A program made the position numbers and the translations under genes. The notes below the pieces were generated by a model that was not told where the DNA came from, ran no database searches, and saw nothing but the letters and a program-made list of their open reading frames with translations. Below are positions 8,596 through 59,249 of a stretch of 64,000 bases of DNA, one piece after another; positions within the stretch are counted from its first letter, which is position 1, and every line of letters begins with the position of its first letter. The stretch is from Senegalimassilia sp. GTDB lineage: Bacteria > Actinomycetota > Actinomycetes > Actinomycetales > Bifidobacteriaceae. The DNA lies in contig CAVEXE010000005.1 in assembly GCA_963619615.1 (NCBI GenBank), positions 21,647 to 85,646 on the forward strand, given 5' to 3'.

Positions 8596-8596
8596 C

Positions 8597-9415: not shown

Positions 9416-9489
9416 GCGGGAATGGCCGCATGACATGCCGATGGAGGGCGAGACTTGCTGATAGTCCCGCCCTCATGTGTATTATTGAC

Positions 9490-10318: not shown

Positions 10319-10364
10319 TCTGGATTCACATACTGTAAGAACATACAGTATAAGGACATACAGC

Positions 10365-10398
10365 AAGAGCCTCGCAATCATTTGGTTGCGAGGCTCTT
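10365..10398. terminator. hairpin terminator between rpsD and the convergent holin-like gene
   Basis: AAGAGCCTCGCAA ... TTGCGAGGCTCTT. Confidence 0.75.
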
Positions 10399-10436
10399 CG
10401 CTATTCTGGAACCGCCCGGACGGTGATGCAAGACGT

Positions 10437-10802
10437 TCAATCGCCGAGGATTCCTCCGACGATGCCGGACACGATCGACATAATCAGCGAACCGATCACT
10501 GACCACCAGAAACCATCAATGGTGACACCCACGTCGAACAGGCTCAAAGCCAGCCATGAGGCCAATTGCATGAACATCCAGTTGATAATCAGGGCCACAA
10601 GGCCAAACGTCAGTATCGAAAACGGCAACGCGATGGCATGGACGATCGGCTTGACGGAAGCGTTAATTAACGCGAGGAACAACGAGAACGTCGCGATGCC
10701 GAGAATGGGCGGATCCCCGACGGCGTGCATGCCGGGCAGCAGCGCGACCATGACGCCGGCCGCTATGGTAAGAACCAGCCAACGAGAAATGAAATGATGC
10801 AT
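10437..10802 (-). CDS. four-TM membrane protein of the phage holin (DUF360/YvlD-like) family
   Basis: LINASVKP...LPFSILTFGL..LIIN and IDGFWW motifs; no phage genes nearby, so likely a chromosomal family member. Confidence 0.8.
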   Translation of the reverse strand: MHHFISRWLVLTIAAGVMVALLPGMHAVGDPPILGIATFSLFLALINASVKPIVHAIALPFSILTFGLVALIINWMFMQLASWLALSLFDVGVTIDGFWWSVIGSLIMSIVSGIVGGILGD

Positions 10803-45351: not shown

Positions 45352-45391
45352 GCAAGCTTGCCGATGTGCCTGCGGAGAATTGTGACACATC

Positions 45392-45410
45392 GGTTTTTAG
45401 CGCTACAATT
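45392..45410 (+). promoter_or_regulatory. LacI-type operator overlapping the -10 element of the GH31 gene
   Basis: TAGCGCTA palindrome (45398-45405) with central CG, overlapping TACAAT (45404-45409); LacI gene two genes into the same unit. Confidence 0.55.
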
Positions 45411-45453
45411 TCAGTGTCGGTATTATTTCGCACCACCACAAAGGAGTGTCATC

Positions 45454-47511
45454 GTGACGAAGAACGTCAATTTCACCACTGACGGCAAAGCGTTGAACTG
45501 GACCAGCGACGGAGAATATCTCCGCATCGAACCATGGGGAAGAAACAGCGTGCGCATCAGAGCCCGGCTCATGCAGGACGTGGCCGATGCGGACTGGGCC
45601 CTGCTGGAACCGAAGGATTCGGACGACGAGCATGTGGAAATCGACATCAACGAATCGACGGCCACTTTGACGAACGGATTGGTGAGGGTTCTGGCCGAGC
45701 AGTATGAGCAGTCCGCGGAAACAAGCATCTGCAGACTGACCTTCATGAACGCCAGCACAGGAACGATCCTGCTGCGCGAATGCACCGATGGGGGAGCCTT
45801 GCGACTGAGGGCCCGCGCCCACAATCCACGCATGGACGGTGCGGAATCGCCGGTGGTCATGTTCGAGGCGAATGACGGAGAGCACATTTACGGAATGGGC
45901 GAGTATCAGCAGTCCGTCATGGACCTTAAAGGGTCCACGCTGGAACTTGCCCACCGCAATTCCCAAGTATCCATTCCGTTCATGCTCTCCAGCAGAGGGT
46001 ACGGATTCCTTTGGCATAATCCGGCGGTGGGATCCGTGACGTTCGGCAACAACCGGACGGAATGGAAGGCGGGAGTCTCTGACCAGATCGACTACTGGAT
46101 CACCGTCGGAACCAACGCGCAGATCGAACGCCAATACGCCGACGCGACCGGACACGCGCCGAACATGCCCGAATGGGGACTGGGATTCTGGCAATGCAAG
46201 CTGCGCTACTGGAACCAGGAAGAACTTTTGAACGTGGCCCGCACGTTCAAAAACAAGCGCATTCCCATCGACCTCATCGTCATCGACTTCTTCCACTGGC
46301 CACTCATGGGAGATTTCCGATTCGATGAGGAATTCTGGCCGGACCCGAAAGCGATGGCACAGGAACTGCACGACATGGGCATCAAACTCATGGTGTCCAT
46401 CTGGCCGCAGATTGACCTGCAATCCGAAAACTACGACGAAATGCGTCACCATAACTACCTGGCCAAAACACGCCAAGGCAAGGACGTGGGCATGTGGTGG
46501 CCTCGGGACAACCAGTTCTTTGACGCCACCAACCCGGCCGCACGTGACTTCGTATGGAACCTATGCCGTAAGAACTATGCCGACCTCGGCGTGGACGCGT
46601 TCTGGCTCGACGAAGCCGAACCGGAATGGGGCGGAGACTACGACTACGCGCACTACCTGTACCATATCGGCCCGGTCGGCAAGGTAGGCAACGTGTATCC
46701 GCAGCTATACAACAAAACCTTCTACGACGGACAGCTCTCCATCGGGCGCGAAGGAGACATCGTGAACCTCACGCGTGCCGGATGGGCAGGTTCGCAACGT
46801 TACGGCTCGCTCATCTGGTCGGGCGACGTGCACTCCACCTTCGAAGACCTCAAGGCGCAGATCACCTGCGCCATCCACATGGGTGTGGCGGGAATCCCGT
46901 GGTTCACCACCGACATGGGCGGATTCAACCCGGGCGGCCTGGACGACGAATCCTTCAAGGAACTCTATGCACGCTGGTGCGAATTCTCCTGCTTCTCACC
47001 GGTCATGCGCAACCATGGCAACCGCGCGCCATACACCAGAATCGAAGGGAAACCGGCATTCGACCGCATCGGCAATCCGATAGACCACATCACCACGGGC
47101 TCGGACAACGAACCATGGAGCTACGGTGAGACCATCGAGAACCTGATGGTCAAATACATCACCATCCGCGAAACCATGAGGCCATACACCCGGAAACTGT
47201 TCGCATCAGCCCACGAGGACGGCCAGCCAATCGTACGAGGACTGTTCTTCGACTTCCCGCAAGACGACCAGGTCGCGAACATAGCCGACGAATACCTGTT
47301 CGGCCCGGACCTGCTGATAGCACCGGTCACCGACCTTTCGGCACGCTCCCGCACGGTCTACCTGCCGGGCGGCGAAGAAACGCGATGGACCGACCTCCAT
47401 ACCGGACAAACCTTCAACGGAGGCAGGACAGTCACCGTCGAAGCACCGCTGGACGTCATACCCGTATTCGCCCGCAACGGCGCAGATCACGGGCTGAACG
47501 GTATGATCTGA
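45454..47511 (+). CDS. glycoside hydrolase family 31 (alpha-xylosidase/alpha-glucosidase-like)
   Basis: YGMGE, GFWQCKLRY, IVIDFFHW, FWLDEAEPE nucleophile region, WSGD, TDMGGF, YLFGPDLLIAP; GTG after AAGGAG; no signal peptide. Confidence 0.9.
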   Translation: MTKNVNFTTDGKALNWTSDGEYLRIEPWGRNSVRIRARLMQDVADADWALLEPKDSDDEHVEIDINESTATLTNGLVRVLAEQYEQSAETSICRLTFMNASTGTILLRECTDGGALRLRARAHNPRMDGAESPVVMFEANDGEHIYGMGEYQQSVMDLKGSTLELAHRNSQVSIPFMLSSRGYGFLWHNPAVGSVTFGNNRTEWKAGVSDQIDYWITVGTNAQIERQYADATGHAPNMPEWGLGFWQCKLRYWNQEELLNVARTFKNKRIPIDLIVIDFFHWPLMGDFRFDEEFWPDPKAMAQELHDMGIKLMVSIWPQIDLQSENYDEMRHHNYLAKTRQGKDVGMWWPRDNQFFDATNPAARDFVWNLCRKNYADLGVDAFWLDEAEPEWGGDYDYAHYLYHIGPVGKVGNVYPQLYNKTFYDGQLSIGREGDIVNLTRAGWAGSQRYGSLIWSGDVHSTFEDLKAQITCAIHMGVAGIPWFTTDMGGFNPGGLDDESFKELYARWCEFSCFSPVMRNHGNRAPYTRIEGKPAFDRIGNPIDHITTGSDNEPWSYGETIENLMVKYITIRETMRPYTRKLFASAHEDGQPIVRGLFFDFPQDDQVANIADEYLFGPDLLIAPVTDLSARSRTVYLPGGEETRWTDLHTGQTFNGGRTVTVEAPLDVIPVFARNGADHGLNGMI

Positions 47512-47513
47512 CC

Positions 47514-48539
47514 ATGACTACTTTAGATGATGTGGCACGCCTCGCCGGAGTCTCCCGCATGACGGCGTCCAACGCGATACGCGGCAAGGCAATCGTCAAA
47601 CCCGAAACCGCGAAACGGGTATTGACGGCCGCCGCGCAACTCGGATACAGGCCCAACCTTGCGGCAAGACAACTCAGCTCAGGCAAAAGCCACATCATCG
47701 GAGTGACGGTCAGCGACTTCGACCTGATCTACCCCGCGGCGGTGGCGGCATACGCGTCGGACATGGCACAGCGCCGCGGATACCAGACCATCTCGCAACA
47801 AACGAGATTCTCCAGCGACTTCGAACAGCGCATAATGTCCAGCGCCGCGATGCAGGTATGCGACGGCACCATCATCTGCTGGCCCAGCGGAGCCGGAGAA
47901 GCCATCCTGGAATTCGGAAACAACCACCCGCTGGTCGCGGTCGACGGATTCGCGCTCAAAGGCAAAGTGGACTGCGTCTTCACCCCATGTCTGGAAGGCT
48001 CCGCCGCCGCCATCAAACATCTTCACGCCCACGGGCGCTCGCGGATACTTCTGCTGGGCATGTGGCCCAACGGCCTCGAACAGGCCGAAGCCGAACCGAA
48101 TTCCGCGGCGCTCCGTCTGCGTGGCGCGGTCGATGCCATGGAAGAACTTTCGATTCCATACGATCTGCGAAACGATGCGATTCCATGCAAGTGGACCCGT
48201 CAAGCCGGATATGAGGCCATGCTACGAGTATTGGGGGAGCGGTCGGACTTCGACGCGGTGTTCTGCGCCACCGATCCGATAGCATTCGGCGCCATGAGGG
48301 CATTGTCCGAACACGGATTCAGCATCCCCGACGATGTGGCAGTCATCGGATTCGACGGACTGGAAGACGGCGCCTACGCCAGTCCAGGATTGACCAGCGT
48401 TGCCGTCAGTCCGCGCGATATGGCCGCGGCAAGCCTCGACATGCTGTTCGACCGCATCGATTCGGATGCAAAAACGAACGATGTCGCCCGATCCGTGACC
48501 GTGGACTTCCGAATCGTGGAACGGGGCAGCGCGGAATAG
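47514..48539 (+). CDS. LacI family transcriptional regulator
   Basis: TLDDVARLAGVSRMTASN HTH, YRPNLAARQL hinge, IPDDVAVIGFD. Confidence 0.94.
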   Translation: MTTLDDVARLAGVSRMTASNAIRGKAIVKPETAKRVLTAAAQLGYRPNLAARQLSSGKSHIIGVTVSDFDLIYPAAVAAYASDMAQRRGYQTISQQTRFSSDFEQRIMSSAAMQVCDGTIICWPSGAGEAILEFGNNHPLVAVDGFALKGKVDCVFTPCLEGSAAAIKHLHAHGRSRILLLGMWPNGLEQAEAEPNSAALRLRGAVDAMEELSIPYDLRNDAIPCKWTRQAGYEAMLRVLGERSDFDAVFCATDPIAFGAMRALSEHGFSIPDDVAVIGFDGLEDGAYASPGLTSVAVSPRDMAAASLDMLFDRIDSDAKTNDVARSVTVDFRIVERGSAE

Positions 48540-48618
48540 CTGGGCCACGGAGTAGCCTAACCATGAAAAAGCCAATAATCGCGGCGATGAGAGAGATACG
48601 GGTAATCGAGCGGAGAAC

Positions 48619-49959
48619 ATGGAAAAGAACCTGACGGACGGCAACGTATTCAAAATCATCGTCACGTTCGCCATGCCATATTTCCTCTCGTACTTCCTAC
48701 AAACCCTGTACGGCATGGCCGATCTGTTCATCGCCGGACAATTCATCGGTGTGGACGGCATCACCGCGGTGGCCAACGGCAGCCAAGTGCTGTACATGCT
48801 CACCGTGGTGATCGTCGGCCTCGCCATGGGAGCCACCGTGAGCATCGGTCGCTGCGTCGGTGCGAATCGGCTCGATGACGCGGCCGAAGCCATAGGCAAC
48901 ACCATCACGTTGTTCGCGGGCGTGGCCCTTGCGCTCACCGTGGTACTGCTGGCCAACGTCAACGGCATCGTATCGCTCATCGGCACACCATCCGAAGCAG
49001 TGACGGGCACCACGCAATATCTGACGATCTGCTTCATCGGCGTTCCCTTCATCGTGGCCTACAACATCATCAGCTCCATCTTCCGAGGACTGGGAGATTC
49101 GAAAAGCCCGATGTATTTCATCGCCGTGGCATGCGCAGGCAACATCGCGCTCGACTACCTGTTCATGGGATATATGGACATGGGCCCTTCCGGAGCCGCG
49201 CTCGGCACCACGCTCGCACAGTCGTTCAGCGTGTTGGTGGCATTCGCGACCATACGGCGAAGGCGTACCGGTATACATCTGAACGTGACGATCCTGCGTC
49301 CGCAACGCGCCATACTTGGCGGAATTCTCAAAATCGGCGTACCGACCGCAGTGCAGGACGGATGCATCCAGGTGGCGTTCATCATCATCACCGTCATCGC
49401 CAACTATCGCGGACTCAACGACGCCGCGGCGGTCGGCGTGGTCGAAAAAGTAATCAGCGCGCTGTTCCTGGTGCCATCGTCCATGCTTGCCACGGTCTCG
49501 GCAGTTTCCGCGCAGAACATCGGTGCAGGCAAATACGACCGCGCCACGAAGACGCTCCGGTATGCCACCGGCATCACCGTGGCGTACGGCATTGTGATTT
49601 CCGTCATCGTGGAGCTCACCGCGGCGCCCATAGTCGGACTGTTCACCACCGACGCCGCGGTGATATTGCTCGGCACCCAATATTTGAGCAGCTACATCGT
49701 GGACTCTATCTTCGCCGGAGTGCATTTCTGCTTCTCCGGCTTCTTCGCGGCCTATGGTCGCTCCTACATCGGATTCATCCACAACATCATCGCCATCACA
49801 CTGGTTCGCGTGCCCGGGTCGTACATAGCGTCGAAGATGTTCTCCGACACCTTGTTCCCCATGGGCATCGCCGCGCCGGCAGGATCGTTCCTGTCCGTGC
49901 TCATATGCATTGGCTTCTACGCGTGGATGAAACGTGAAGGCGTGCTCGCGGTGAAGTGA
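48619..49959 (+). CDS. MATE family efflux transporter
   Basis: LQTLYGMADLF, RGLGDSKSP, NIALD, GAALGT, AQNIGAG; about 12 TMs. Confidence 0.92.
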   Translation: MEKNLTDGNVFKIIVTFAMPYFLSYFLQTLYGMADLFIAGQFIGVDGITAVANGSQVLYMLTVVIVGLAMGATVSIGRCVGANRLDDAAEAIGNTITLFAGVALALTVVLLANVNGIVSLIGTPSEAVTGTTQYLTICFIGVPFIVAYNIISSIFRGLGDSKSPMYFIAVACAGNIALDYLFMGYMDMGPSGAALGTTLAQSFSVLVAFATIRRRRTGIHLNVTILRPQRAILGGILKIGVPTAVQDGCIQVAFIIITVIANYRGLNDAAAVGVVEKVISALFLVPSSMLATVSAVSAQNIGAGKYDRATKTLRYATGITVAYGIVISVIVELTAAPIVGLFTTDAAVILLGTQYLSSYIVDSIFAGVHFCFSGFFAAYGRSYIGFIHNIIAITLVRVPGSYIASKMFSDTLFPMGIAAPAGSFLSVLICIGFYAWMKREGVLAVK

Positions 49960-50002
49960 GGTTAAGCGAGAACCGGCTGGTTCTGTCGGTTTCCAATGAC
50001 TT

Positions 50003-51028
50003 CTAACGGCGTTTCGGTGCAAGTGTGCCGGCAAGGGCGCGCTCTCCTGGGCGGGCCAGCGGGCCTACCAGTTCATGCGCCGAATAGGGTTCCTCGATGT
50101 AGGAGATGTCTTCGGCCGTGAGCTCCAGACCGAGCGCCGTGATGGCATCGTCCACGCGTTCCGGTTTTGAGCAACCGACGATTGGCGCGGTCACGCCCTT
50201 GGCCCAGTGCCACGCCAATGCGACGCTGGCCATCGGAACGCCAAGACGTTCGGCCACTTCATGGACGTGCCTGACGATCGGCATATCCTGTTCCATATCA
50301 CGGTCGTATTTGTTGCGCATGGTATTGTCAGTGACGCTTCTTGTCGAATCCGAATCCCAGGTCGGTCGTGTCAAATGGCCGGAAGCCATGGGGGAGTATG
50401 GCGTCAAAGCAACGTCATATTGACGGCAAACCGGAATCATCTCACGCTCGTCCTCACGATAGAGCAGATTGTAATGGCACTGCATGCTGGTGAATTTCGT
50501 CCATCCGTTCGCATCCGCCACGGCCTGCATATTATGGAATTGATAGGCGTACATCTCACTGGCGCCGAGCGCGCGCACCTTGCCGGATTTGACGAGCGCA
50601 TCCAGCGTCTCCATGGTTTCTTCGACGGGTGTGCCATAGTCGAATCTGTGGATGATGTACAGGTCCAGATAGTCGGTGCCCAACCTTGTGAGTGTGCCTT
50701 CGATTTCACGGTTGATGGCGTCCTTCGATAGATGTCCCTCGTTGAAATACACCTTGCTGGCCAGAACCACTTTGCCGCGATCGACGTTCAGATGCTTGAG
50801 CGCGCGTCCGATATACGTTTCGGAAGTGCCGAACGCATAGCAATTGGCGGTGTCGATGAAGTTGACGCCATTGTCGAGCGCATGGCCGATGACGCGTTCG
50901 GTGGCATCCTGATCGATGGTCCACTGGTGGAAGTCCGGTGATGCCTCGCCGAAGCTCATACCACCGAGACAGACTTTGGAGACCTGAATTCCGGACCAGC
51001 CCAGAGGCGCATACTGCATGTCTACCAT
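50003..51028 (-). CDS. aldo/keto reductase
   Basis: LGGMSFG, FIDTANCY, LGTDYLDLYIIHRFD, GKVRALGAS, YNLLYRE, PYSPMASG. Confidence 0.93.
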   Translation of the reverse strand: MVDMQYAPLGWSGIQVSKVCLGGMSFGEASPDFHQWTIDQDATERVIGHALDNGVNFIDTANCYAFGTSETYIGRALKHLNVDRGKVVLASKVYFNEGHLSKDAINREIEGTLTRLGTDYLDLYIIHRFDYGTPVEETMETLDALVKSGKVRALGASEMYAYQFHNMQAVADANGWTKFTSMQCHYNLLYREDEREMIPVCRQYDVALTPYSPMASGHLTRPTWDSDSTRSVTDNTMRNKYDRDMEQDMPIVRHVHEVAERLGVPMASVALAWHWAKGVTAPIVGCSKPERVDDAITALGLELTAEDISYIEEPYSAHELVGPLARPGERALAGTLAPKRR

Positions 51029-51192
51029 ATTGGCTCCTTCTTTCTGACGTGAAAGGTATGGCTTGAAGCTATCACGTTCGCCCGGAGGAAACCAATGCCT
51101 TGCATATCATCGGTTTCCATGCAAAAAAACTATGGAAGAACATGTCGTACACTCATTGGACATTCTTTTCGTATGGGCGTTGAATACGGCGT

Positions 51193-51600
51193 ATGAACAA
51201 TCCAAGTGCATTTCCGATGGGTGATCCGAATGACGGTTTCGCACAGTATTTCGTTGGACGGAGCTATCTGGCACCGGTGCTTGATGCTCCGGAAATCGCC
51301 ATCCACAATGTAACCTTCGAGCCTGGGTGCCGCAATAACTGGCATATCCATCATGGTGGCGCGCAGGTGCTCATCGCGGTAGGTGGACGTGGTTATTACC
51401 AGATTGACGGGCAGGAACCGAAGGAGCTCAGGGCGGGTCAGGCCGTGTGCATTCCGGCCGATACCAAGCACTGGCATGGTGCCGCTCCGGGTGAGGCGTT
51501 CTCGCACCTCGCATTCATGGTGCCCGCCGGTGACACCTCCGCCATGAGCAACGAGTGGCTCGAACCGGTCGACGCAGTGGCATACGGGCGTCTCGACTGA
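51193..51600 (+). CDS. cupin domain protein
   Basis: NVTFEPGCRNNWHIH, GRGYYQ, HWHGAAP, EWLEPV. Confidence 0.88.
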   Translation: MNNPSAFPMGDPNDGFAQYFVGRSYLAPVLDAPEIAIHNVTFEPGCRNNWHIHHGGAQVLIAVGGRGYYQIDGQEPKELRAGQAVCIPADTKHWHGAAPGEAFSHLAFMVPAGDTSAMSNEWLEPVDAVAYGRLD

Positions 51601-51732
51601 TCGTTTTGCCGATGAAATCGTCTTCACCAGTGGACTGGCTTCGCGGATCGGAACTGGCCTCGGCGCGAGACCATGTAAGCGACACCCGTGTCGGCGACAA
51701 ACTAAAACAAAAGACACTTGCAACGGCTGATC

Positions 51733-52896
51733 CTACATCATGTCCATCAACATGAAGGCGAGCAGCAACTGCAGTCTGCTGTCCAGTCTGGATAGGTCCA
51801 TGCACAGGATTTCCGCTGCTTTGGCGATTTTGTAGTTCACCGTGTTGCGGTGTACAAACAGCTCGTCGGCGGTCTCCTTCACGCTGCCGTTGTGGTTGAG
51901 ATAGCAGCGGAGCACGTCCAGCAGGTCGGAACTGGATTCCTTGTCGTACTCGATCAGAGGCCCCAGAACCTGTTCGTAGTATTCATGCGAGATTTCCGGA
52001 TCCTCGATGCCGAGCAGCACGCGGTATGCGCCGAGGTCGTCGAAGAAATTGATGCGGTCTTTCAGCTTCCTGCGTGACTGCAATTTCAGGATGGACGCCG
52101 CCTGACGATGGCTCTTGCTGACGCAGCGGATGCTTTTGGTGAGTTTCCCCACGCCTATGGATGCGGTTTCCTGCATGCGCAACGCATGCTCGACGATGGT
52201 GAGTATGCCGCGTCCCCATGCGCGCAGCTGCTGCGGTTCGTCGCAGTGCATCACGATGATGATCTGTTTCCAGGCGCTGAACACGGCGCTGAAACGTACG
52301 TTCCTGTGCAGATATTTTTGAATCTGCGTTGCGATGGATTCCAATCTTTCATACGGATCCGCCGCATAATGCTCCACCTGCACGATGGCGACGGCGTAAC
52401 GCCATTCGATTTCGAAGTGGAATTCCGAAAGCGTCGCCGTATACAGTTCCTGCTGGTCCGGGAATGAGATGGCGTTCTGGAACGCCGTGCTCACCATGCG
52501 TTCCTTGGTTTCCTCCTCGATGATGCGTCGACATAGCGGACGCGCGATGTTCTCGAACGACGCGTCTTTGGGAATGGTGAACAGCGCGAAGCCATGCTCT
52601 TCGCAGAAGGTCATCACCTCGACGGGCGGTTCCATGAAGAAATGTCCGATGTCGAGCGCTATGCCGGCCGCATGATGCTCATATAAGGATTTGACGTGGT
52701 TGAGCAGCGCGCCGTCTTCCTGCAGGGCGATGCCGGTGACGAGTATCAGTTCGTCGCCCGCAAGATAATTGATCATCAGTGTAGGCTCCAGCACATGAAC
52801 CCAGGTAACGTGATGTCCAAGCCCATCTTTTCCTGCGACCAGCTGAAGCGGAACGTCCGGACAGTCCTCAATCAACTCATGTAATTCCAAAGTCAT
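51733..52896 (-). CDS. PucR family transcriptional regulator
   Basis: N-terminal LVAGKDGL...VTWVH.LE, ELILVTG; C-terminal HTH TADELFVHRNTVNYKI; divergent from the aminotransferase operon. Confidence 0.9.
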   Translation of the reverse strand: MTLELHELIEDCPDVPLQLVAGKDGLGHHVTWVHVLEPTLMINYLAGDELILVTGIALQEDGALLNHVKSLYEHHAAGIALDIGHFFMEPPVEVMTFCEEHGFALFTIPKDASFENIARPLCRRIIEEETKERMVSTAFQNAISFPDQQELYTATLSEFHFEIEWRYAVAIVQVEHYAADPYERLESIATQIQKYLHRNVRFSAVFSAWKQIIIVMHCDEPQQLRAWGRGILTIVEHALRMQETASIGVGKLTKSIRCVSKSHRQAASILKLQSRRKLKDRINFFDDLGAYRVLLGIEDPEISHEYYEQVLGPLIEYDKESSSDLLDVLRCYLNHNGSVKETADELFVHRNTVNYKIAKAAEILCMDLSRLDSRLQLLLAFMLMDMM

Positions 52897-53208
52897 ATGT
52901 AATCCCAACGAAACATAACGTTAACTGCGTATTTCGAGATGTTTTGGACATCTTTGGCGCAGCGTCGTGACTGAAGGACATCATAGCGGCCCGATATTAC
53001 GGTTTTTCGCGAATCATCCGTCCGTCTCTTTGCATCGCCTGCAATGTTACGACAAATCGATTGTGCTGGAGCCTAATCGAATTTGGGCTTGCATGGCTGG
53101 AGAAACCGTTTTGGAAGGCAACATAATGAGTCCCAGTTCCGACTGGAGATGACGGCCGGGCAATTTGTTTCAGGATATTCCGTCATGAGAAGCAAGGAGA
53201 CATGCATT

Positions 53209-54426
53209 ATGAAGCTGCAGGACACCGGACTGACGTTCGAAGACATCAAGGGCAAGGTCGACACCTACATGGTCGAAACCTACGAGCGTTTCGACTTCCT
53301 CGCCGACCACGCCAAGGGTGTCTATATGTATGACGAGAACGATACCCCGTATCTCGATTTCTACGCAGGCATCGCAGTGAACTCCGTCGGCAACTGCAAC
53401 GAGAAGGTGGTCGAGGCCGTGCAGGATCAGGCCGCCACCTTGATGCAGACCTTCAACTATCCGTACACCATCCCGCAGGCGCTGCTCGCCGAGAAGATCT
53501 GTACTTCCATCGGCATGGACAAGATCTTCTTCCAGAACTCCGGCACCGAGTCGAACGAGGCCATGATCAAGATGGCCCGCAAGTACGGCGTCGAGAAGTA
53601 CGGTCCGAACAAGTACCACATCGTCACCGCCCGCGAATCCTTCCACGGCCGCACTTTCGGCGCCATGTCTGCAACCGGCCAGCCGGACAACGCATGCCAG
53701 ATCGGTTTCGGACCGATGACCGGAGGCTTCTCCTACGCGCCGTTCAACGATCTTGAGGCGTTCAAGGCAGCATGCAACGAGAACACCATCGCCATCATGG
53801 TCGAGCCTGTTCAGGGCGAAGGTGGCGTGCACCCGGCAACCCAGGAATTCCTGCAGGGCCTGCGTGAATTCTGCGATGAAAAGGGACTGCTGCTGCTGCT
53901 CGATGAAGTGCAGTCCGGCTGGGGCCGTACCGGTGCGCTCATGTCGTACATGAACTATGGCATCAAGCCCGACATCGTCTCCATGGCGAAGGCCATGGGC
54001 GGCGGCATGCCGATTGGCGCCATCTGCGCCACCAAGGAAGTCGCCGAAGCCTTCACCATGGGCTCCCACGGTTCCACTTTCGGCGGGCATCCGGTCTGCT
54101 GTGCGGCATCGCTTGCCGCGGTCACCGAAATCATCGACCGTGATCTGGCCGGCAACGCCAAGAAGGTCGGTGCCTATTTCATCGACAAGCTTTCCAAGCT
54201 GCCGCATGTCAAGGAGGCCCGCGGCCAAGGCCTGTTCGTCGGCGTCGAATTCGACGGCAGCGTCAACGCGGTCGACATCAAGCACGGCTGCCTCGACCGC
54301 AAGCTGCTCGTTACCGCCATCGGCAAGGACGTGGTCCGTATGGTACCGCCGCTGATCATCACCGAGGAGGACGCCGACAAGGCCGTGTCGATCATCGCGC
54401 AGACCGTCGAAGCATTGTCCGCGTGA
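53209..54426 (+). CDS. class III PLP-dependent aminotransferase (ArgD/omega-amino acid type)
   Basis: YLDFYAGIAVN, NSGTESNE, FHGRT, EPVQGEGG, DEVQSGWGRTG, MAKAMGGG (PLP lysine), HGSTFGG; RBS AAGGAG. Confidence 0.9.
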   Translation: MKLQDTGLTFEDIKGKVDTYMVETYERFDFLADHAKGVYMYDENDTPYLDFYAGIAVNSVGNCNEKVVEAVQDQAATLMQTFNYPYTIPQALLAEKICTSIGMDKIFFQNSGTESNEAMIKMARKYGVEKYGPNKYHIVTARESFHGRTFGAMSATGQPDNACQIGFGPMTGGFSYAPFNDLEAFKAACNENTIAIMVEPVQGEGGVHPATQEFLQGLREFCDEKGLLLLLDEVQSGWGRTGALMSYMNYGIKPDIVSMAKAMGGGMPIGAICATKEVAEAFTMGSHGSTFGGHPVCCAASLAAVTEIIDRDLAGNAKKVGAYFIDKLSKLPHVKEARGQGLFVGVEFDGSVNAVDIKHGCLDRKLLVTAIGKDVVRMVPPLIITEEDADKAVSIIAQTVEALSA

Positions 54427-54478: not shown

Positions 54479-55069
54479 ATGAAACACATGGTCATAACCA
54501 TCGGTTGCGAATACGGCGCCGGTGGCCCTGAAATCGGAAAGATGCTCGCCAAAGCGCTTGGCATCGAATACTACGACCGCGATCTCGTCGACAAGATCAT
54601 CAACGATCTCGACGTAGACAAGGAACTCGTCGAAAAGGCCGATAAGGGAGCGAACGTTCCCTACACGTTCGAAACGACGCTCGGCCCGCGCTACGCGAAC
54701 CTGACGAACAAGGTCATTTCCCTGCAGTATCAGGCCATGCATGAGATGGCCGAACGCTCGTCCTGCGTCATCATTGGCCGTAGCGCCAACTATCTGCTGC
54801 AGGACAGGGACGACCTGGTCAACATCTTCATCTACGCGCCGGAAGAGGAACGAGTCCGCGCGATCATGGAGAAGCAGTCCGTGAACGAGAAGCAGGCGAG
54901 GGAAATCGTCGGTTACAACGACGAGAAGAACCGCAGCAGGCATCAGTACATCACCGGTATGGACCGCGGCGATCGCAGACAGCGCGACATTCTGATCGAC
55001 AGCAGCATGCTCGGCTGGGAGAAAACCTGCCAGTATCTGCTGCTGCTTATCGAAATGATGAACGAATAA
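54479..55069 (+). CDS. cytidylate kinase-like family protein
   Basis: VITIGCEYGAGG degenerate P loop, YYDRDL, CVIIGRSANY, IFIYAP..ER, IDSSMLG. Confidence 0.85.
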   Translation: MKHMVITIGCEYGAGGPEIGKMLAKALGIEYYDRDLVDKIINDLDVDKELVEKADKGANVPYTFETTLGPRYANLTNKVISLQYQAMHEMAERSSCVIIGRSANYLLQDRDDLVNIFIYAPEEERVRAIMEKQSVNEKQAREIVGYNDEKNRSRHQYITGMDRGDRRQRDILIDSSMLGWEKTCQYLLLLIEMMNE

Positions 55070-55075: not shown

Positions 55076-55110
55076 AAAGGGCCGTGGCTCGGGGGAGCTC
55101 GGTCCTTTTC
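55076..55110 (+). terminator. intra-operon hairpin before the permease-ADH fusion gene
   Basis: AAAGGGCCG..GCTC-GGGG-GAGC.CGGTCCTTTT. Confidence 0.45.
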
Positions 55111-55156: not shown

Positions 55157-57829
55157 ATGGAAACTCCAACTAAGAAAACATCAGAATTTAAGAAATCATT
55201 CAGTTCGCTCGACATCCTGATGATCGCCTTCGGCGCGATGATCGGTTGGGGATGGGTGGTCTCCACGGGCGATTGGATCGGAACCGCAGGCGTGATCGGC
55301 GCCATGCTCGGCTTCATCCTCGGCGGCGTGATGATCTTCTTCATCGGCATGACCTACGCCGAACTGACGCCGGCGATGCCTGAATGCGGCGGCGAACATG
55401 TGTTCAGCATGAGAGCCATGGGTCCGATCGGATCATTCGTCTGTACCTGGGCCATCATCCTCGGCTACGTGAGCGTCGTCTGCTTCGAGGCATGCGCGTT
55501 GCCGACCATCATCACCTACATCTGGCCGAGCTTCCTGCAGGGCTACCTGTATTCCGTGGCGGGATTCGACATCTACGCCACATGGCTGGGCACCGCCGTG
55601 CTGTTCGCGGTCTTCATCACCGTGATCAACATCATGGGTGCGCAGATCGCCGCCAAACTGCAGAACATCCTGACCATGTGCATCGGTGCCGCGGGCATCC
55701 TGCTGATCGCCGCGTCCGTTGTCACCGGTGACGTCTCCAACCTCGAGAACCAGCTGTTCGAAGGCTCCGGCATGGCCGGTATGATGTCGACCATTGTCAA
55801 GGTGGCGGCCATCAGCCCGTTCTTCTTCATCGGCTTCGACGTGATTCCACAGGCCGCGGAAGAGATCAACGTGCCGCTTAAGAAAATCGGCAAGATCCTC
55901 ATCCTCTCCATCATCCTGGGCACCAGCTTCTATGCGCTGGTCATCTTCTCCGTCGGCTATGTGATGACCGGAGACCAGATCGCGGCATCCAGCAGCGGAA
56001 CCGGTTTGGTGACCGCGGACGCCATGGCGGCGGCATTCCACAGCACCATCATGGCGAAGGTATTGATCCTCGCGGGTATGTGCGGCATCCTCACCAGCTG
56101 GAACTCGTTCATGATCGGCGGCAGCCGCGCCATGTACTCCATGGCCGAGTCCTACATGATCCCGCGTTTCTTCACCAAGCTCCATCCCAAGACCAACTCG
56201 CCGTACGTCGCGATCATCGTCGTCGGCGTGCTGAGCGTGCTCGCTCCGTTCGCCGGACGCAAGATGCTCGTGTGGGTCGTGGATGCAGGCAACTTCGGAT
56301 GCATCCTCGCGTATTGCATGGTCGCGCTGTCCTTCCTCATCCTGCATGTGAAGGAGCCGAACATGGTTCGCCCGTACCAGGTGAAGCACTGGAAGCTGGT
56401 CGGCGTAATCGCAGTGCTGATGTCCGGCATCATGATCATGCTGTACATCCTGCCCGGCACCGGCGTGACCCTGGCCCCGCAGGAATGGCTCATGGTCGCC
56501 GGATGGTCCGCGCTCGGCGTCGTGTTCTTCATCTTCAGCAAGCTGGTCTACAAAGACAAGTTCGGCTACTACGCACAGCTGTACGTCAGCGAATTGCACG
56601 ATGGGGCCGAGGAGGAGAAGGAAATCCCCGAATCCGCCACCGTCGTCAACCCCGCGGCCGCCGAAGCCAGCGTTCCGGACGAATGGTCCAACGGCTTCAA
56701 TTACTTCCTGCCGGTGAACCTCGTATTCGGCAAGGGCAAGGTGCAGGAGATCGGCAAGCTCGCATCCATGCACGGCTCCACCGCGATGATCGTCACGGGC
56801 GGCAACTCCGTGAAGGCCAACGGCACCTACGACAAGGTCCGTGCGCTGCTTGAAGAAGCCGGCATGACCACCGTGCTCTTCGACAAGGTCACGCCGAATC
56901 CGTTGACCACCACCGTTGACGAAGGCGGCAGAATCGCCAAGCAGCAGCATGTCGATGTGGTGATCGGCCTCGGTGGCGGCAGCGCCATGGACTCCGCCAA
57001 GGGCATCGCGTTCATGGCCGAGAACGAGGGCGGCGTCAGCGAATACATCTATGGCGAACGCGCCTCCAGCAAGGCATTGCCGCTCATTCTCGTGCCGACC
57101 ACCTTCGGCACCGGATCCGAAGCCAACGGCTTCTCCGTCATGACCAATCCGGCCAACGGCGACAAGAAGTCGCTGCGCAGCCCGGCACTCGTGGCGACCG
57201 CGTCCATCGTCGACCCTGACCTGATGCGCACCATGCCGAGCAGCGTAATCGCAGCCAACGGATGCGACATGCTGTGCCACTGCATCGAGGCGTACACCGC
57301 CAACAACGCCCAGCCGTTCACCGACGCCCTCGCACTGTATGCGATCCCGCTCATCGCCAACAACATCGTGAGCCTGTACCGCGGCGAGGGAACCGACGAA
57401 CAGTGGGCCAAGGTCTGCCTTGCGGGCACCATCGGAGGCATGATCATCAACACGGCGGGAGTCGGCCTGGGCCATGCCATGGAACACCCCGTCAGCGGAC
57501 TGAAGAACGTCACCCACGGCAAGGGTCTGGCCGCCATCGAACCGGCCACCATCGAAGCGACCTACCAGTACAACCGCTTCAAGTACGGCCGCATCGCAAG
57601 GGTGCTGGGAGGCTTCACCGCAGAGGATTGCGCTCCGCGAATGAAAACCCTGCTGCGCGATCTCGACCTCGACGTGACCCTGAGCGACCTGGGCATCGAG
57701 AAGAAGGACATTCCGTGGCTCGCCCAGAACACCCACAAGGTCTCTCCCGGAAACCTCGTGAACACGCCGGGCTCCAAGCTCGTCACATCCGAGGAATCCC
57801 TGGAGAAACTGTACGAGGCCATGCTCTAA
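55157..57829 (+). CDS. fusion protein: APC family amino acid permease (N-terminal) + iron-containing alcohol dehydrogenase (C-terminal)
   Basis: GAMIGWG, YAEL.PAMPECGG, FIGFD, AEE, SRAMYSMA and about 12 TMs up to about nt 56560; acidic linker; then FNYFLPVNLVFGKG, GLGGGSAMDSAK, PTTFGTGSE, DMLCHCIE, GHAMEH, THG. One uninterrupted frame. Confidence 0.9.
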   Translation: METPTKKTSEFKKSFSSLDILMIAFGAMIGWGWVVSTGDWIGTAGVIGAMLGFILGGVMIFFIGMTYAELTPAMPECGGEHVFSMRAMGPIGSFVCTWAIILGYVSVVCFEACALPTIITYIWPSFLQGYLYSVAGFDIYATWLGTAVLFAVFITVINIMGAQIAAKLQNILTMCIGAAGILLIAASVVTGDVSNLENQLFEGSGMAGMMSTIVKVAAISPFFFIGFDVIPQAAEEINVPLKKIGKILILSIILGTSFYALVIFSVGYVMTGDQIAASSSGTGLVTADAMAAAFHSTIMAKVLILAGMCGILTSWNSFMIGGSRAMYSMAESYMIPRFFTKLHPKTNSPYVAIIVVGVLSVLAPFAGRKMLVWVVDAGNFGCILAYCMVALSFLILHVKEPNMVRPYQVKHWKLVGVIAVLMSGIMIMLYILPGTGVTLAPQEWLMVAGWSALGVVFFIFSKLVYKDKFGYYAQLYVSELHDGAEEEKEIPESATVVNPAAAEASVPDEWSNGFNYFLPVNLVFGKGKVQEIGKLASMHGSTAMIVTGGNSVKANGTYDKVRALLEEAGMTTVLFDKVTPNPLTTTVDEGGRIAKQQHVDVVIGLGGGSAMDSAKGIAFMAENEGGVSEYIYGERASSKALPLILVPTTFGTGSEANGFSVMTNPANGDKKSLRSPALVATASIVDPDLMRTMPSSVIAANGCDMLCHCIEAYTANNAQPFTDALALYAIPLIANNIVSLYRGEGTDEQWAKVCLAGTIGGMIINTAGVGLGHAMEHPVSGLKNVTHGKGLAAIEPATIEATYQYNRFKYGRIARVLGGFTAEDCAPRMKTLLRDLDLDVTLSDLGIEKKDIPWLAQNTHKVSPGNLVNTPGSKLVTSEESLEKLYEAML

Positions 57830-57903: not shown

Positions 57904-57962
57904 TCGTCATATGAGTCGCATACGCAAAGAATCACACGCAAAAGATGTATGGGACCGTCGAA

Positions 57963-58958
57963 CTACAGTTCGAACACACGCCTGATGAAGCCCTCCACCT
58001 TACGCCAATAAACATCAGGAGCCACACCCGCGCTCTCCATATGATTGGCACCGGGAACCAGCAGCTTCTCGCGGTCCATGCTCGCGCAGGCATTGTAATT
58101 GATCTCAAGGAACCGCGGATTGACCATATGATCATCCCCGCCATGAATGAACAGCATCGGAATGACCGCACGCCTCAACGACTTCACGCACGACGCCTCC
58201 GTGAAATCATATCCGGCACGCCACTTGCAGATAAGCCCTGCGGTATCCACACAGGCGGCGGCGAGCGGACGAGGAAGATGGAACATGGTACGGGCGCTGT
58301 CGATAAACGCGGAACGAACCGACGTATAGCCGCTATCCTCAATGGCCGCGACCACATTACGAGGCAACCTCGGATCCCCGACCGTCATCATCACAGTCGT
58401 CGCACCCATCGACCCGCCATACAGCAGAATGCGGGCCTGGCTATCACTGGAAACGATCAAATCGATCCAATCCAACAAATCGTTACGCTCCAGCCAACCC
58501 ATACCGACGTAACGACCCTCGCTCAAATCCGCCGTCCTCTGCGACGGCGCAAGCACGGTGAACCCCAAGCGCGCATACCGGTGCGCCCACACCGCGGTCT
58601 CCTCCGCATGCCCCGTATACCCATGCATGCAAATCGCGTACAAATGAGGTTCGGGATCAACGCAATCCGGATCAAACAGCCAGCCGTGCAATTTCAAACC
58701 ATCCCCGTTCGTCATCGTCACGGGCTGTTTGGTCTGCTCGAACCAGGCGGAAGCCTCCGCAGCCGGTCCGGAACTCATCTTCTCATAACGATCCGGCGCG
58801 ATTATATCCTGATGGAAAATGGAATGCTTCCACTTGGTATCAAGAGCGAAATGGAACAGAACACCGGCGCTCGCCGCCACGATTCCGGCGAATACCGCCA
58901 CGGAGGTACCGGTGGCGATACGTATGTTGCGGACGATATCGGAATGGTTTTGCTTCAT
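57963..58958 (-). CDS. alpha/beta hydrolase with N-terminal membrane anchor
   Basis: HGY oxyanion motif, GGSMG nucleophile elbow, IEDSGY, FIHGGDD, GANH. Confidence 0.88.
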   Translation of the reverse strand: MKQNHSDIVRNIRIATGTSVAVFAGIVAASAGVLFHFALDTKWKHSIFHQDIIAPDRYEKMSSGPAAEASAWFEQTKQPVTMTNGDGLKLHGWLFDPDCVDPEPHLYAICMHGYTGHAEETAVWAHRYARLGFTVLAPSQRTADLSEGRYVGMGWLERNDLLDWIDLIVSSDSQARILLYGGSMGATTVMMTVGDPRLPRNVVAAIEDSGYTSVRSAFIDSARTMFHLPRPLAAACVDTAGLICKWRAGYDFTEASCVKSLRRAVIPMLFIHGGDDHMVNPRFLEINYNACASMDREKLLVPGANHMESAGVAPDVYWRKVEGFIRRVFEL

Positions 58959-59249
58959 TGCTGCCTCGATTCCCGCCTGTCGGCGTTGATTGCTTCCGCC
59001 TACGATTGTACGTGGTGCGGGCGCGCAGCGGACATCGGTTTCGTGTTGCGCCCGCGGTTATGCGCAAGCCTGTTGAAAGTAGCGTCGGCATTGGCGATGT
59101 CAATGCCGTCTGTATACTGGATGACTGTTGTCTTGGCGAGGGAGGTTCCGCCTCCGTAATCGACTCGGCGCGTGAATGCACTCCTTGTGCGTCCTCACGG
59201 CTCGTTGATGCGCCGAAACAGAAGAACGAATATCAAGGAGATATTGATT

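Follow-up and report, generated by a model that had tools for sequence, protein, structure and literature searches.

In Clostridium viride, gene clusters combine a 4-aminobutyrate transaminase with an Fe-type alcohol dehydrogenase (FeADH) that is a 4-hydroxybutyrate dehydrogenase (Cvir-Hbd1/2/3), a pucR gene and an amino acid permease, according to the available part of PMC13495136, in which Cvir-Hbd2 is a selective 4-hydroxybutyrate dehydrogenase and Cvir-Hvd a 5-hydroxyvalerate dehydrogenase. The same part of that paper gives Tyr at the position corresponding to 256 and Asn at that corresponding to 34 as marks of the clostridial 4-hydroxybutyrate dehydrogenases, and contains (section 2.3) a cofactor rule by which Asp39 favours NAD and Gly favours NADP. 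For Bifidobacterium kashiwanohense, nitrogen scavenging from taurine via sulfoacetaldehyde to isethionate by Toa and the FeADH TauF has been proposed (PMC6616044, in its available part; PDB 6JKO). Proteins in which a permease and an FeADH are joined are named 'bifunctional amino acid transporter/iron-containing alcohol dehydrogenase' by NCBI/UniRef and 'alcohol dehydrogenase class IV/amino acid transporter' by JGI. These names are labels for the architecture only, and our literature search found no paper characterising any member of the fused family.

The window (the whole 64,000-nucleotide stretch of DNA that was analysed) encodes a protein of the same two-domain, full-length layout, which aligns to proteins so named with 99–100% coverage and 61–84% identity and is therefore a member of this family. 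The first-pass annotation had implied that the fusion was novel; the architecture turns out to be widespread and named in databases, its prior description being by annotation only. The fusion architecture itself is already known, and the gene context is what is new. Table 1 lists the features of the locus.

Table 1. Features of the fusion gene and its neighbours (coordinates in the window).
Feature	Position	Strand	Basis
PucR-family regulator (PucR + GGDEF_2 + HTH_30), divergent from the operon	51733..52908	-	Pfam
AT3, class-III aminotransferase, ArgD/ornithine-AT family	53083..54426	+	Aminotran_3 1.8e-111
PF13189 'cytidylate kinase-like' (CK-like) protein, 196 aa (P0121)	54479..55069	+	Cytidylate_kin2 2.2e-46
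Weak GC-rich hairpin with following T-run, CK-like/fusion spacer	55086..55102	+	Pattern scan
Fusion ORF (890 aa + stop)	55157..57829	+	Window translation: 0 internal stops
Fusion ORF aa 1-482, APC-superfamily permease, 12 TM helices	55157..56602	+	Pfam; hydropathy; AlphaFold2 helices
Fusion ORF aa 483-515, acidic Ala/Pro-rich disordered linker	56603..56701	+	AlphaFold2 pLDDT <50; hypervariable in 26 relatives
Fusion ORF aa 516-890 + stop, Fe-type (class III) alcohol dehydrogenase	56702..57829	+	Pfam; ligand invariance; alignments

Translation and Pfam confirmed the single frame read at first pass as an APC permease joined to an FeADH. The same frame is also listed from an upstream GTG at 55139 (896 aa); the ATG at 55157 follows AGGAAGGAA and gives 890 aa, the length seen in relatives. 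Pfam places AA_permease_2 at aa 16–450 (1.7e-36), Fe-ADH at aa 519–687 (1.4e-51) and ADH_Fe_C at aa 699–860 (1.3e-36), and the AlphaFold2 model has two confident domains with a low-pLDDT segment between them. The ORF is an intact gene for a 12-helix APC permease, a disordered acidic linker and a complete FeADH.

The linker has a mean identity to the window protein of 0.19 among aligned relatives, as compared to 0.51–0.92 for the permease and 0.55–0.76 for the dehydrogenase (whose last 20 residues, at 0.38, fall below the rest of the domain), and the aligned junction region (49–106 residues) is hypervariable in both length and sequence. A codon scan bore out that the linker has no in-frame ATG or GTG; it has one in-frame TTG (Leu480), with no Shine-Dalgarno-like sequence 5' of it. 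Hypervariability across relatives and the AlphaFold2 disorder back the earlier idea of an evolved flexible tether. There is practically no chance that an error in sequencing or assembly, or the loss of a stop codon in one strain, joined two adjoining genes here. Some metagenome ORFs of 376–541 aa do resemble separate ADH genes, and locus L126 has a stop codon at the permease/ADH junction; however, in the tree the short ORFs fall within the fused clade, often near-identical to fused proteins (they are probably fragments or broken alleles), and the ADH part of L126 is itself broken too. The identical 890-aa frame occurs at 97–100% identity in several assemblies and at 61–90% identity in hundreds of clusters. 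Because both domains are present in all of the best 120 full-length relatives (61–100% identity), which thus keep the fusion rather than two genes, and because the fusion recurs in 27 independent loci, it is not the read-through of a spacer, as the first-pass annotation had judged; these relatives and loci, together with our surveys of Bifidobacterium and Lachnospiraceae-type genomes, refute an artefact.

In these surveys, 18 of 151 Bifidobacterium species genomes carried the fusion, one of them as a fragment at a contig end and the other 17 at full length, and so did 12 of the 401 genomes of the Lachnospiraceae-type family sample. It is kept across Bifidobacterium, Lachnospiraceae and other Firmicutes, and is common in gut bacteria. 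A quick ADH tree (our trees are quick trees with SH-aLRT support only) places two Bifidobacterium clades separately among Firmicutes fused forms, and the Lachnospiraceae locus L120 has the layout of the window (identities: PucR 38%, AT3 81%, CK-like 67%, permease 68%, ADH 62%). Bifidobacterium likely acquired the cluster from Firmicutes, at least twice.

Over aa 16–450, the permease scores 126.5 bits to AA_permease_2 (threshold 27) and 113.3 to AA_permease (threshold 24.6); it has 12 hydropathy peaks and 12 long AlphaFold2 helices ahead of residue 468, and its juxtamembrane motif K-x-x-Y-K-x-K-F-G is conserved. The full-core profile and the 12 TM helices identify an APC permease, the sidedness of which is a prediction: given the 12 helices, the Lys-rich N-terminus and the Lys-rich stretch after TM12, the ADH domain would have to be cytoplasmic, in agreement with the cytoplasmic-face placement made at first pass. 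The permease subfamily is tight and far from other APC permeases, with GkApcT (5oqt, 92.5 bits) as the closest solved permease. Neither GabP (TIGR01773, 47.8 bits vs cut-off 678.1) nor the ethanolamine permease (TIGR00908, 130.6 bits vs cut-off 381.75) was accepted as its identity.

The dehydrogenase half matches PF00465 (174.9 bits, threshold 31.3) and PF25137 (126.6 bits, threshold 27). All motifs named in the first-pass annotation were found, namely GGGS (606–609), PTTFGTGSE (647–655) and the metal ligands D704 and H708 (DMLCH), H773 (GHAMEH, which also holds H777) and H787 (THG), and each of them is invariant in the 26 aligned family members, as is VTG. With every ligand and cofactor motif conserved in this way the domain is complete, as had been claimed, and, judged from its sequence, catalytically so. 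Its ligand positions match the His3Asp motif described in the available part of PMC13495136. Residues were mapped by alignment to 5yvm, with the neighbouring clade aligned to Z. mobilis ADH2; since the cofactor-specificity position is occupied by Gly (Gly548), the domain probably uses NADPH or both cofactors. It exceeds the cut-off of no curated equivalog tested, including ErcA (the best, 229.5 bits vs 550), choline dehydrogenase GbsB (210.2 vs 550), the lactaldehyde reductase FucO (195.6 vs 523), SarD (NF050025, 189.1 vs 700), the Cupriavidus-type 4-hydroxybutyrate dehydrogenase (NF058672, 173.7 vs 500) and EutG (139.6 vs 556). The Cvir-Hbd2/C. kluyveri type (cd14860) was also rejected (77.2 bits to 30sm; His777 and Gly548 instead of Tyr and Asn), as was TauF (137 bits to 6jko; His708 where TauF has Gln).

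The aminotransferase AT3, whose true start is probably about 30–40 codons downstream of position 53083, scores 434.2 bits to TIGR00707 (cut-off 410); among solved structures, acetylornithine aminotransferases are closest to it. The biosynthetic argD is a different gene, the housekeeping copy that adjoins argB on contig C17, and AT3 belongs to the ArgD family rather than to GabT: the sole match over the TIGR00700 cut-off in the genome is on contig C9 (548.9 bits, cut-off 506.65). There, GabT is part of a canonical permease-GabT-Hbd cluster whose ADH is of the Cvir-Hbd2 type (356 bits to Cvir-Hbd2, HALSY motif). AT3 orthologues with 71–81% identity lie upstream of CK-like and permease genes in Lachnospiraceae. 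The PucR gene is conserved in position in the Bifidobacterium loci L002–L008, and a 38%-identical PucR is likewise placed in L120. The hairpin upstream of the fusion could be a partial terminator or attenuator; the region has seven hairpin/T-run sites, no more than shuffled sequences (mean 6.6).

The PF13189 gene is directly upstream of the fusion in all 27 fused loci, a constant partner that was missing from the first-pass account. Its AlphaFold2 model (pLDDT 87) is nearest by Foldseek to 3hdt (E 9e-15; a Clostridium symbiosum 'putative kinase') and 3fdi (E 1.5e-13; Eubacterium ventriosum), both uncharacterised structural-genomics entries, with TM 0.75–0.9, whereas true CMP kinases match only at TM of about 0.5–0.64. 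An identity as cytidylate kinase was rejected (TIGR02173, 34.1 bits vs 102.1; P-loop GCEYGAGGPEIGKM, with the Walker Lys unconserved in 74 aligned members). In the P0392 cluster (Ruminococcus-type 'amino acid permease', 700 aa, 314 members), the same permease subfamily is fused to PF13189: the permease is 57–58% identical to that of the window and the PF13189 domain about 51% identical to the separate gene of the window, but the C-terminal partner of the permease is PF13189, not ADH, and the ADH is a separate Hbd-type gene. Of 80 such loci, seven were examined for their operon (PucR, GabT-like, permease, FeADH); PucR, GabT-like and permease::PF13189 genes are present in all seven and are followed in six by an FeADH of the 4-hydroxybutyrate dehydrogenase type (327 bits to Cvir-Hbd2, PDB 30sm). 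The permease C-terminus in the family accepts either an ADH or a PF13189 domain, and fusions of PF13189 domains to MATE and DUF6198 membrane proteins also exist. We propose, from gene fusion and linkage only, that the PF13189 protein attaches to the permease in the cytoplasm, as an accessory or regulatory subunit. In the Rosetta-stone sense, the two alternative fusions, permease::ADH and permease::PF13189, hint at a physical complex; they also hint at what PF13189 may do, a large family that has solved structures but no known function.

Among the 27 fused loci, 19 contain a class-III aminotransferase, in most cases accompanied by a regulator of the PucR or HTH-cupin type. It is of the AT3 type in the window, L001–L008 and L119–L123, while a GabT type is the only aminotransferase in L020–L023 and L117 and is also present in L119–L122. 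Seven loci have no aminotransferase and instead carry an OCD/mu-crystallin enzyme, an AraC regulator and an HcnABC/proline-dehydrogenase-like set; in three genomes of this OCD type no GabT was found over the cut-off. Unfused loci have a separate, complete FeADH gene after the permease. Three of the five stand-alone relatives of the ADH domain that were found (44–50% identity) adjoin GabT: the order in L031 is PucR, ADH, permease (51% identity) and GabT (TIGR00700, 550 bits vs cut-off 507), GabT in L029 scores 518 bits, and L032 has a PotD-like ABC transporter, an aldehyde dehydrogenase, a putrescine aminotransferase, ADH and GabT, with the ADH taking the place of succinate-semialdehyde dehydrogenase.

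The window has the parts for transamination followed by reduction (class-III aminotransferase, FeADH, permease and PucR), and they recur in relatives. We predict, with slightly better than even confidence, that the fusion imports a GABA-like omega-amino compound, which an aminotransferase converts to an aldehyde and the tethered ADH reduces to a hydroxy acid. The permease would bring an omega-amino acid or an amine into the cell (in order of preference, GABA, 5-aminovalerate or putrescine); AT3 would move the amino group to 2-oxoglutarate, giving glutamate (a gain of nitrogen) and an omega-oxo acid or aldehyde; and the ADH domain would reduce the latter to 4-hydroxybutyrate or 5-hydroxyvalerate. 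In the genome, which is 99.96% complete, neither the HpaB_N family nor Pyridoxal_deC has a match. HpaB_N is presumably the family of 4-hydroxybutyryl-CoA dehydratase, and since it is missing the hydroxy acid would be a waste product that has to exit the cell. The fusion would keep reductase and carrier in a constant 1:1 ratio at the membrane, the site of aldehyde formation, and an ADH dimer formed through the N-terminal strands could bring two permeases together. The chemistry suggested at first pass, 'amine in, hydroxy compound out', fits the conserved aminotransferase and ADH; the direct channelling between carrier and reductase is unlikely in the form then given, because transamination by a separate protein divides the permease substrate from the ADH substrate.

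Several observations speak against a GABA-like substrate. The local aminotransferase is ArgD/ornithine-AT-like, not GabT-like, and is absent from the seven loci noted above; the ADH passes no equivalog cut-off and the permease is far below the GabP model; and the genome already has the canonical cluster on C9, so the window module may serve a different amine. One rather unlikely candidate is a diamine: putrescine (or cadaverine) would be imported, AT3 would be a putrescine-type aminotransferase, and the ADH would reduce 4-aminobutanal to the amino alcohol, or else the GabT modules adjoining in relatives would finish a route from putrescine to GABA to 4-hydroxybutyrate. AT3 reaches 251 bits with the putrescine aminotransferase model, and its solved relatives include such enzymes, but the PatA cut-off is, at 612, far higher. 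An HTH_3 + Cupin_2 regulator (which we take to be the architecture of E. coli PuuR) precedes the AT3-permease unit in many Lachnospiraceae/Clostridia loci, although the regulator in the window is PucR. AT3 modules often adjoin GabT modules (L119–L122, L126, L129, L024–L026), and L032 is a full putrescine cluster with a relative of the fused ADH; however, it alone has an aldehyde dehydrogenase for 4-aminobutanal to GABA, which is found in no fused locus.

That a basic amino acid is imported, with AT3 as ornithine delta-aminotransferase (and an OCD-family enzyme instead in Lachnospiraceae) and the ADH acting on glutamate semialdehyde or oxidising a hydroxy amino acid in reverse, seems quite improbable. 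For ornithine (or lysine/arginine) speak the TIGR00707 assignment of AT3 and its 297 bits to ornithine aminotransferase, the OCD/mu-crystallin gene in the place of the aminotransferase, the proline-dehydrogenase-like genes near these loci (with a ProC gene in one locus) and GkApcT, a cationic amino acid transporter homologue. However, glutamate semialdehyde cyclises to P5C, on which ProC normally acts, so that a fused ADH for this purpose would be superfluous; the model that best fits the OCD-family gene is labelled 'tyramine oxidase subunit B' and is not that of ornithine cyclodeaminase; the ADH domain has relatives that go with GabT rather than ornithine genes; and the permease subfamily recurs in the Ruminococcus operon with GabT and 4-hydroxybutyrate dehydrogenase. 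We give still little credence, and consider it very unlikely, that the ADH domain mainly reads the NAD(P)H or aldehyde level to regulate the transporter, with PF13189 as a second regulatory module. The interchangeable C-terminal partners would suit such a role, and PF13189 on MATE and DUF6198 proteins suggests a general function as a transporter appendage, but neither the four metal ligands nor the NAD(P)-binding motifs vary among the 26 aligned members, and the complete separate FeADH in unfused loci fits a metabolic need better than a purely regulatory domain.

Extending the GABA-like reading, we put forward, tentatively and with the balance of probability against it, that permease, PF13189 and FeADH (with the aminotransferase) form a membrane metabolon in gut Bifidobacterium and Lachnospiraceae, which would convert luminal GABA/5-aminovalerate to 4-hydroxybutyrate (GHB)/5-hydroxyvalerate, and that PF13189 is a hitherto unrecognised class of cytoplasmic domains that assist or regulate secondary transporters (APC, MATE, DUF6198). 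If true, this would be the first functional context for the 'cytidylate kinase-like' PF13189 family. On the GABA-like reading, should it hold, a widespread human-gut and rumen cassette would remove neuroactive or abundant amines (GABA, 5-aminovalerate, perhaps putrescine) and give back the corresponding hydroxy acids, among them 4-hydroxybutyrate, which is neuroactive too, adding a consumption branch to the much-studied microbial production of GABA.

As far as the available part of their description goes, the C. viride clusters have the parts and chemistry of the window (permease, class-III aminotransferase, omega-oxo-acid-reducing FeADH and PucR). In the window, unlike C. viride, the reductase is fused to the permease and comes from a different FeADH clade (its score to Cvir-Hbd2 is 77 bits, its identity to Hbd-type enzymes about 25%), the cofactor-specificity position is Gly rather than Asn or Asp, and there is a PF13189 partner and an ArgD-like aminotransferase; at H777 the fused ADH has the His of Cvir-Hvd and most FeADHs, where Cvir-Hbd2 has Tyr256 in the same source. 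Because the genome has no 4-hydroxybutyryl-CoA dehydratase, the window module would not be a fermentation pathway. The taurine route, in the same genus and as given in the available part of its source, follows the same logic: an amine is transaminated for nitrogen and an FeADH reduces the aldehyde to an excreted alcohol. TauF is there a stand-alone protein of 375 residues with Gln196 as a metal ligand (His708 in the window), and the fused ADH is remote from both TauF and SarD in score. If the GABA-like reading holds, the fusion is a clear-cut natural example of a carrier joined covalently to the enzyme that ends a short pathway.

The fusion is confirmed in full. The first-pass annotation had described a single 890-aa frame joining an APC permease to an iron-containing alcohol dehydrogenase (ADH), and the translation indeed runs for 890 residues plus stop without interruption. 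Pfam matches far over threshold are AA_permease_2 (aa 16-450), Fe-ADH (519-687) and ADH_Fe_C (699-860). The ORF list also offers a GTG start upstream (55139); AGGAAGGAA precedes the ATG at 55157, and a start there gives 890 aa, the length common to close relatives. Every motif named beforehand is found in the ADH domain (GGGS 606-609, PTTFGTGSE 647-655, D704/H708, H773/H777, H787), and its four metal ligands, GGGS and VTG (546-548) are invariant in 26/26 diverse family members; among NCBIfam-type profile scores of this domain, no curated equivalog cut-off was passed. By hydropathy the protein has 12 membrane segments, all ahead of residue 465, and both the N-terminus of the permease domain and the stretch after its last helix are Lys-rich. 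According to an AlphaFold2 model built on a 23-sequence alignment (mean pLDDT 82.8), residues 483-515 are the only long low-confidence segment. This linker has, as had been claimed, no in-frame ATG or GTG; its one in-frame TTG comes with no ribosome-binding-like sequence. In the 26-sequence alignment the hypervariable linker averages 0.19 identity to the window sequence, with the permease at 0.51-0.92 and the dehydrogenase at 0.55-0.76 (0.38 in its last 20 residues), and the junction region of the aligned relatives measures 49-106 residues. A terminator-like hairpin between the fusion and the 'cytidylate kinase-like' PF13189 gene directly 5' of it is no more than chance.

The fusion gene and its neighbours in the window
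Feature	Position	Strand	Remarks
GH31 glycosidase, LacI regulator, MATE transporter, aldo-keto reductase	45358-51028		aldo-keto reductase YdjG-like, 152 bits vs 550; genes syntenic in Bifidobacterium relatives, outside the transferred cassette
197-aa ORF	51130-51723	-	no Pfam or NCBIfam match; not linked to the cluster outside the genus
PucR-family regulator	51733-52908	-	divergent
Class-III aminotransferase (AT3)	53083-54426		TIGR00707 (ArgD subfamily) 434 bits vs cut-off 410
PF13189 'cytidylate kinase-like' protein	54479-55069		196 aa
Permease::ADH fusion	55157-57829	+	890 residues + stop
404-aa ORF	57945-59159	+	no Pfam or NCBIfam match; 39-77% identity among Bifidobacterium relatives, adjoins L25 gene; not linked to the cluster outside the genus

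The implied novelty of the architecture did not survive the database search. A homologue search restricted to proteins of 489-1558 aa (7994 candidates scored) returned 2161 proteins at E <= 0.001, and the best 120 of these 2161 all contain both domain sets (identity 61-100%, coverage 86-100%). The name 'bifunctional amino acid transporter/iron-containing alcohol dehydrogenase' is already in use at NCBI for MAGs of Chordicoccus and Bilifractor and in UniRef for a Bifidobacterium, and JGI calls the same architecture 'alcohol dehydrogenase class IV/amino acid transporter'. The permease::ADH architecture is thus annotated already and, as far as the literature is searchable, uncharacterised: searches of the full-text literature outside subscription journals found no paper on the fusion and nothing relevant on the cluster beyond PMC13495136 and PMC6616044.

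The source of the window is a Bifidobacterium, with related loci in B. moukalabense (90% identity) and in B. pongonis, B. merycicum and B. erythrocebi (84%). Among 151 Bifidobacterium species genomes, 17 carry a full-length fusion and 1 a contig-end fragment, and the copies in this genus form two sequence clades (83-100% and ~63% identity). The 401-genome sample of the Lachnospiraceae-type family of L011 (one of the compared loci) includes 12 genomes with the fusion and 9 with an unfused permease orthologue (63-68% identity); in the class sample of 399 genomes the fusion occurs only in the centre genome. Quick trees were built for both domains. In the ADH-domain tree (quick ML, midpoint-rooted) all fused forms fall in one clade (SH-aLRT 99), true stand-alone ADH relatives fall outside it, and the two clades from Bifidobacterium fall at separate places among those of Firmicutes; the single fused clade and this separate nesting suggest, as far as a tree of this kind goes, that the fusion arose once and entered Bifidobacterium by at least two transfers. 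Short 'stand-alone' metagenome ORFs (376-541 aa) lie inside the fused clade, often near-identical to fused proteins, and are probably fragments or broken alleles. Four contigs 97-99% identical to the window locus (L001, L002, L003 and L008) sit in MAG bins titled Anaerovoracaceae, Dysosmobacter segnis, 'bacterium' and Acidaminococcaceae, titles that most likely reflect binning contamination. One locus (L126, genome G801, 4086-6754) looks like a decaying copy, because its permease stops at the junction and its ADH part is interrupted (ORF of only 288 aa). In another (L124, genome G704, 7040-9826) one reading frame holds both the permease and, as a gene of its own, an FeADH from a different clade, with a single stop and 24 nt between them; the open frame 929 had suggested a second, independent fusion, which we rejected since these are two ORFs parted by one stop.

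We compared 27 ADH-fused loci: the window, L001-L008 (Bifidobacterium clade A), L020-L023 (clade B), and L009-L014 and L116-L123 (Lachnospiraceae). The PF13189 gene is directly upstream of the fusion in all 27, and 19/27 have a class-III aminotransferase. This is of the AT3 type in the window, L001-L008 and L119-L123 (71-81% identical in the last five); a GabT-type enzyme is the sole aminotransferase in L020-L023 (NF005376 490 bits; TIGR00700 471 vs 507) and L117, and an additional one in L119-L122. L120 repeats the window's layout (PucR 38%, AT3 81%, PF13189 protein 67%, permease 68% and ADH 62% identity), with GabT downstream. In 7/27 loci an OCD/mu-crystallin-family gene and a divergent AraC regulator replace the aminotransferase; the gene was assigned by Pfam in L009, L011 and L013, and by tblastn in L116 and L118, and is presumed in L010 and L012 from no more than an ORF of equal size and place (L014 was outside this check). 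Its 378-aa product scores 539 bits vs 362 against NCBIfam PRK06199 'tyramine oxidase subunit B' (L009, L011, L013, L116 and L118), and the flanks examined in these same five loci have four oxidoreductase genes (Fer2_4 / Pyr_redox_2 / BFD / DAO) that as a set are similar to HcnABC, proline dehydrogenase or opine oxidase, near the PF13189 gene and the fusion. A profile search of three genomes with OCD-type loci found no GabT over cut-off.

Unfused relatives agree with the fused loci on context. Around the unfused permease orthologue of Lachnospiraceae, the PF13189 gene precedes the permease in 8/8 loci, which led us to reject the idea that it occurs only with fused forms; AT3 lies ahead of it in 6/8, an HTH_3 + Cupin_2 regulator is often found, and in 4/8 (L124, L127, L129 and L130) a separate FeADH gene comes after the permease. 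These FeADHs belong to another clade and share 63-69% identity with the 381-aa ADH of L024; among solved structures, Z. mobilis ADH2 is the best relative of that L024 enzyme. The PF13189 gene is absent from five other stand-alone permease loci (L024-L027 and L031). Three of these (L024-L026, Clostridia genomes) have two adjacent modules, one with PucR, GabT (TIGR00700 507.8 vs 506.65) and an FeADH of the 4-hydroxybutyrate dehydrogenase (Hbd) type, the other with an HTH-cupin regulator, AT3 (75%), the permease (60%) and the 381-aa FeADH. L027 (genome G431, 2453-10541) has a permease of the same subfamily (59% identical) in a surface-glycan-type context of glycosyltransferase, ATP-grasp-like ligase and Ldh_2-type dehydrogenase. 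The 399-genome class sample yielded five stand-alone ADHs related to the fused domain (44-50% identity), and GabT lies beside three of them (L028 and L030 are uninformative): the orders are PucR - ADH - permease (51%) - GabT (550 bits) in L031, ADH - another APC permease - PucR - GabT (518 bits) in L029, and PotD-like ABC transporter - aldehyde dehydrogenase - putrescine aminotransferase (598 vs cut-off 612, with the query N-terminally cut) - ADH - GabT (485 bits) in L032, where the ADH takes the place expected of succinate-semialdehyde dehydrogenase.

The PF13189 partner has fusions of its own. With the window protein as query, a full-library search found 5906 relatives at E <= 0.001, and among the best matches are 700-aa proteins (P0243/P0392) in which a permease of the same subfamily (57% over 467 residues) carries a PF13189 domain (51%) at its C-terminus. 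P0392, named 'amino acid permease [Ruminococcus sp.]', belongs to a 90% cluster of 314 members and occurs on 61 contigs. In the metagenome loci taken (7 of 80), the order PucR - GabT-like - permease::PF13189 is found in 7/7, followed in 6/7 by a 373-aa FeADH with 327 bits to the 4-hydroxybutyrate dehydrogenase of Clostridium viride (Cvir-Hbd2, PDB 30sm). This fusion is a Rosetta stone for the partner protein. PF13189 is also fused C-terminally to MATE transporters (P0285, whose cluster has 201 members, P0288 and P0340) and to a DUF6198 membrane protein (in the fusion set P0285, P0288, P0340 and P0338), which suggests a cytoplasmic module associated with transporters in general. For the window's PF13189 protein, the AF2 model (pLDDT 87.1) has close structural matches only to 3hdt and 3fdi, both uncharacterised structural-genomics entries; CMP or shikimate kinases are distant matches, and the Walker lysine is missing from the family consensus. 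We infer that PF13189 would serve the transporter as an accessory or regulatory subunit in the cytoplasm, not as a kinase.

The recurrent parts (the tight-subfamily APC permease, PF13189, class-III aminotransferase, FeADH, and a PucR or HTH-cupin regulator) match the known logic of omega-amino acid use, i.e. import, transamination to the omega-oxo acid and reduction to the omega-hydroxy acid. The permease would import an omega-amino compound, the aminotransferase would yield the omega-oxo acid with glutamate nitrogen as the gain, and the ADH domain would reduce it to the omega-hydroxy acid. A profile search of this genome (99.96% complete), which has a GabT cluster on contig C9, gave no match to Pyridoxal_deC (GadB-type) or to HpaB_N, which we take to be the family of 4-hydroxybutyryl-CoA dehydratase; since HpaB_N is not matched, the hydroxy acid would be the end product. 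An alternative with an ethanolamine kinase (the PF13189 protein), a phospho-lyase (AT3) and EutG was dropped because PF13189 has no conserved Walker lysine, AT3 is a typical ArgD-family transaminase, and an OCD enzyme replaces the aminotransferase in some relatives.

As to which omega-amino compound is used, the C9 cluster (~73710-77684, locus L017) encodes an APC permease (25% identical), a GabT over its cut-off (TIGR00700 548.9 vs 506.65) and an Hbd-type FeADH (356 bits to Cvir-Hbd2; HALSY Tyr signature), and these genes predict that this Bifidobacterium turns GABA into 4-hydroxybutyrate without need of the window module. Because that cluster is canonical and the window aminotransferase is ArgD-like, the window module may handle another amine. 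The best solved relatives of AT3 are acetylornithine aminotransferases, and AT3 is distinct from the biosynthetic argD, which adjoins argB on contig C17 (38-41% identical). To us 5-aminovalerate is an attractive substrate, since ArgD-type enzymes would work on C5 chains at the delta-amino group; putrescine and ornithine are possible as well.

Channelling from carrier to reductase, which the first-pass annotation had raised as one possibility, does not explain the fusion in its simple form, because the substrates of the permease and the ADH are one enzymatic step apart. More likely, the tether would keep the stoichiometry fixed, place the aldehyde sink at the membrane complex, or let the product leave by the same carrier. 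Gly548 stands at the cofactor-specificity position of the ADH domain (a positional match that rests on alignments to 5yvm and, for the neighbouring clade, to Z. mobilis ADH2); according to Begic et al. (PMC13495136), Asp at this Rossmann position favours NAD and Gly favours NADP.

The cluster leads to the prediction that gut Bifidobacterium and Lachnospiraceae consume amines and release hydroxy acids, and the permease linkage and fusions provide a first functional lead for PF13189. The permease-tethered reductase with its PF13189 partner sets the cluster apart from those known, although the fused architecture is already catalogued. The predicted pathway resembles the taurine-to-isethionate route that PMC6616044 proposes for B. 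kashiwanohense; taurine itself was rejected as a reading, as ligand identity differs from that of the sulfoacetaldehyde reductases TauF/SarD and scores are low. In the system described in PMC13495136, the gene for Cvir-Hbd2 clusters with pucR and with genes for 4-aminobutyrate transaminases and an amino acid permease, and the GABA and 5-aminovalerate routes consist of transamination and then reduction by an FeADH. The fusion is real, and it is best filed among these known omega-amino-acid transaminate-and-reduce clusters.
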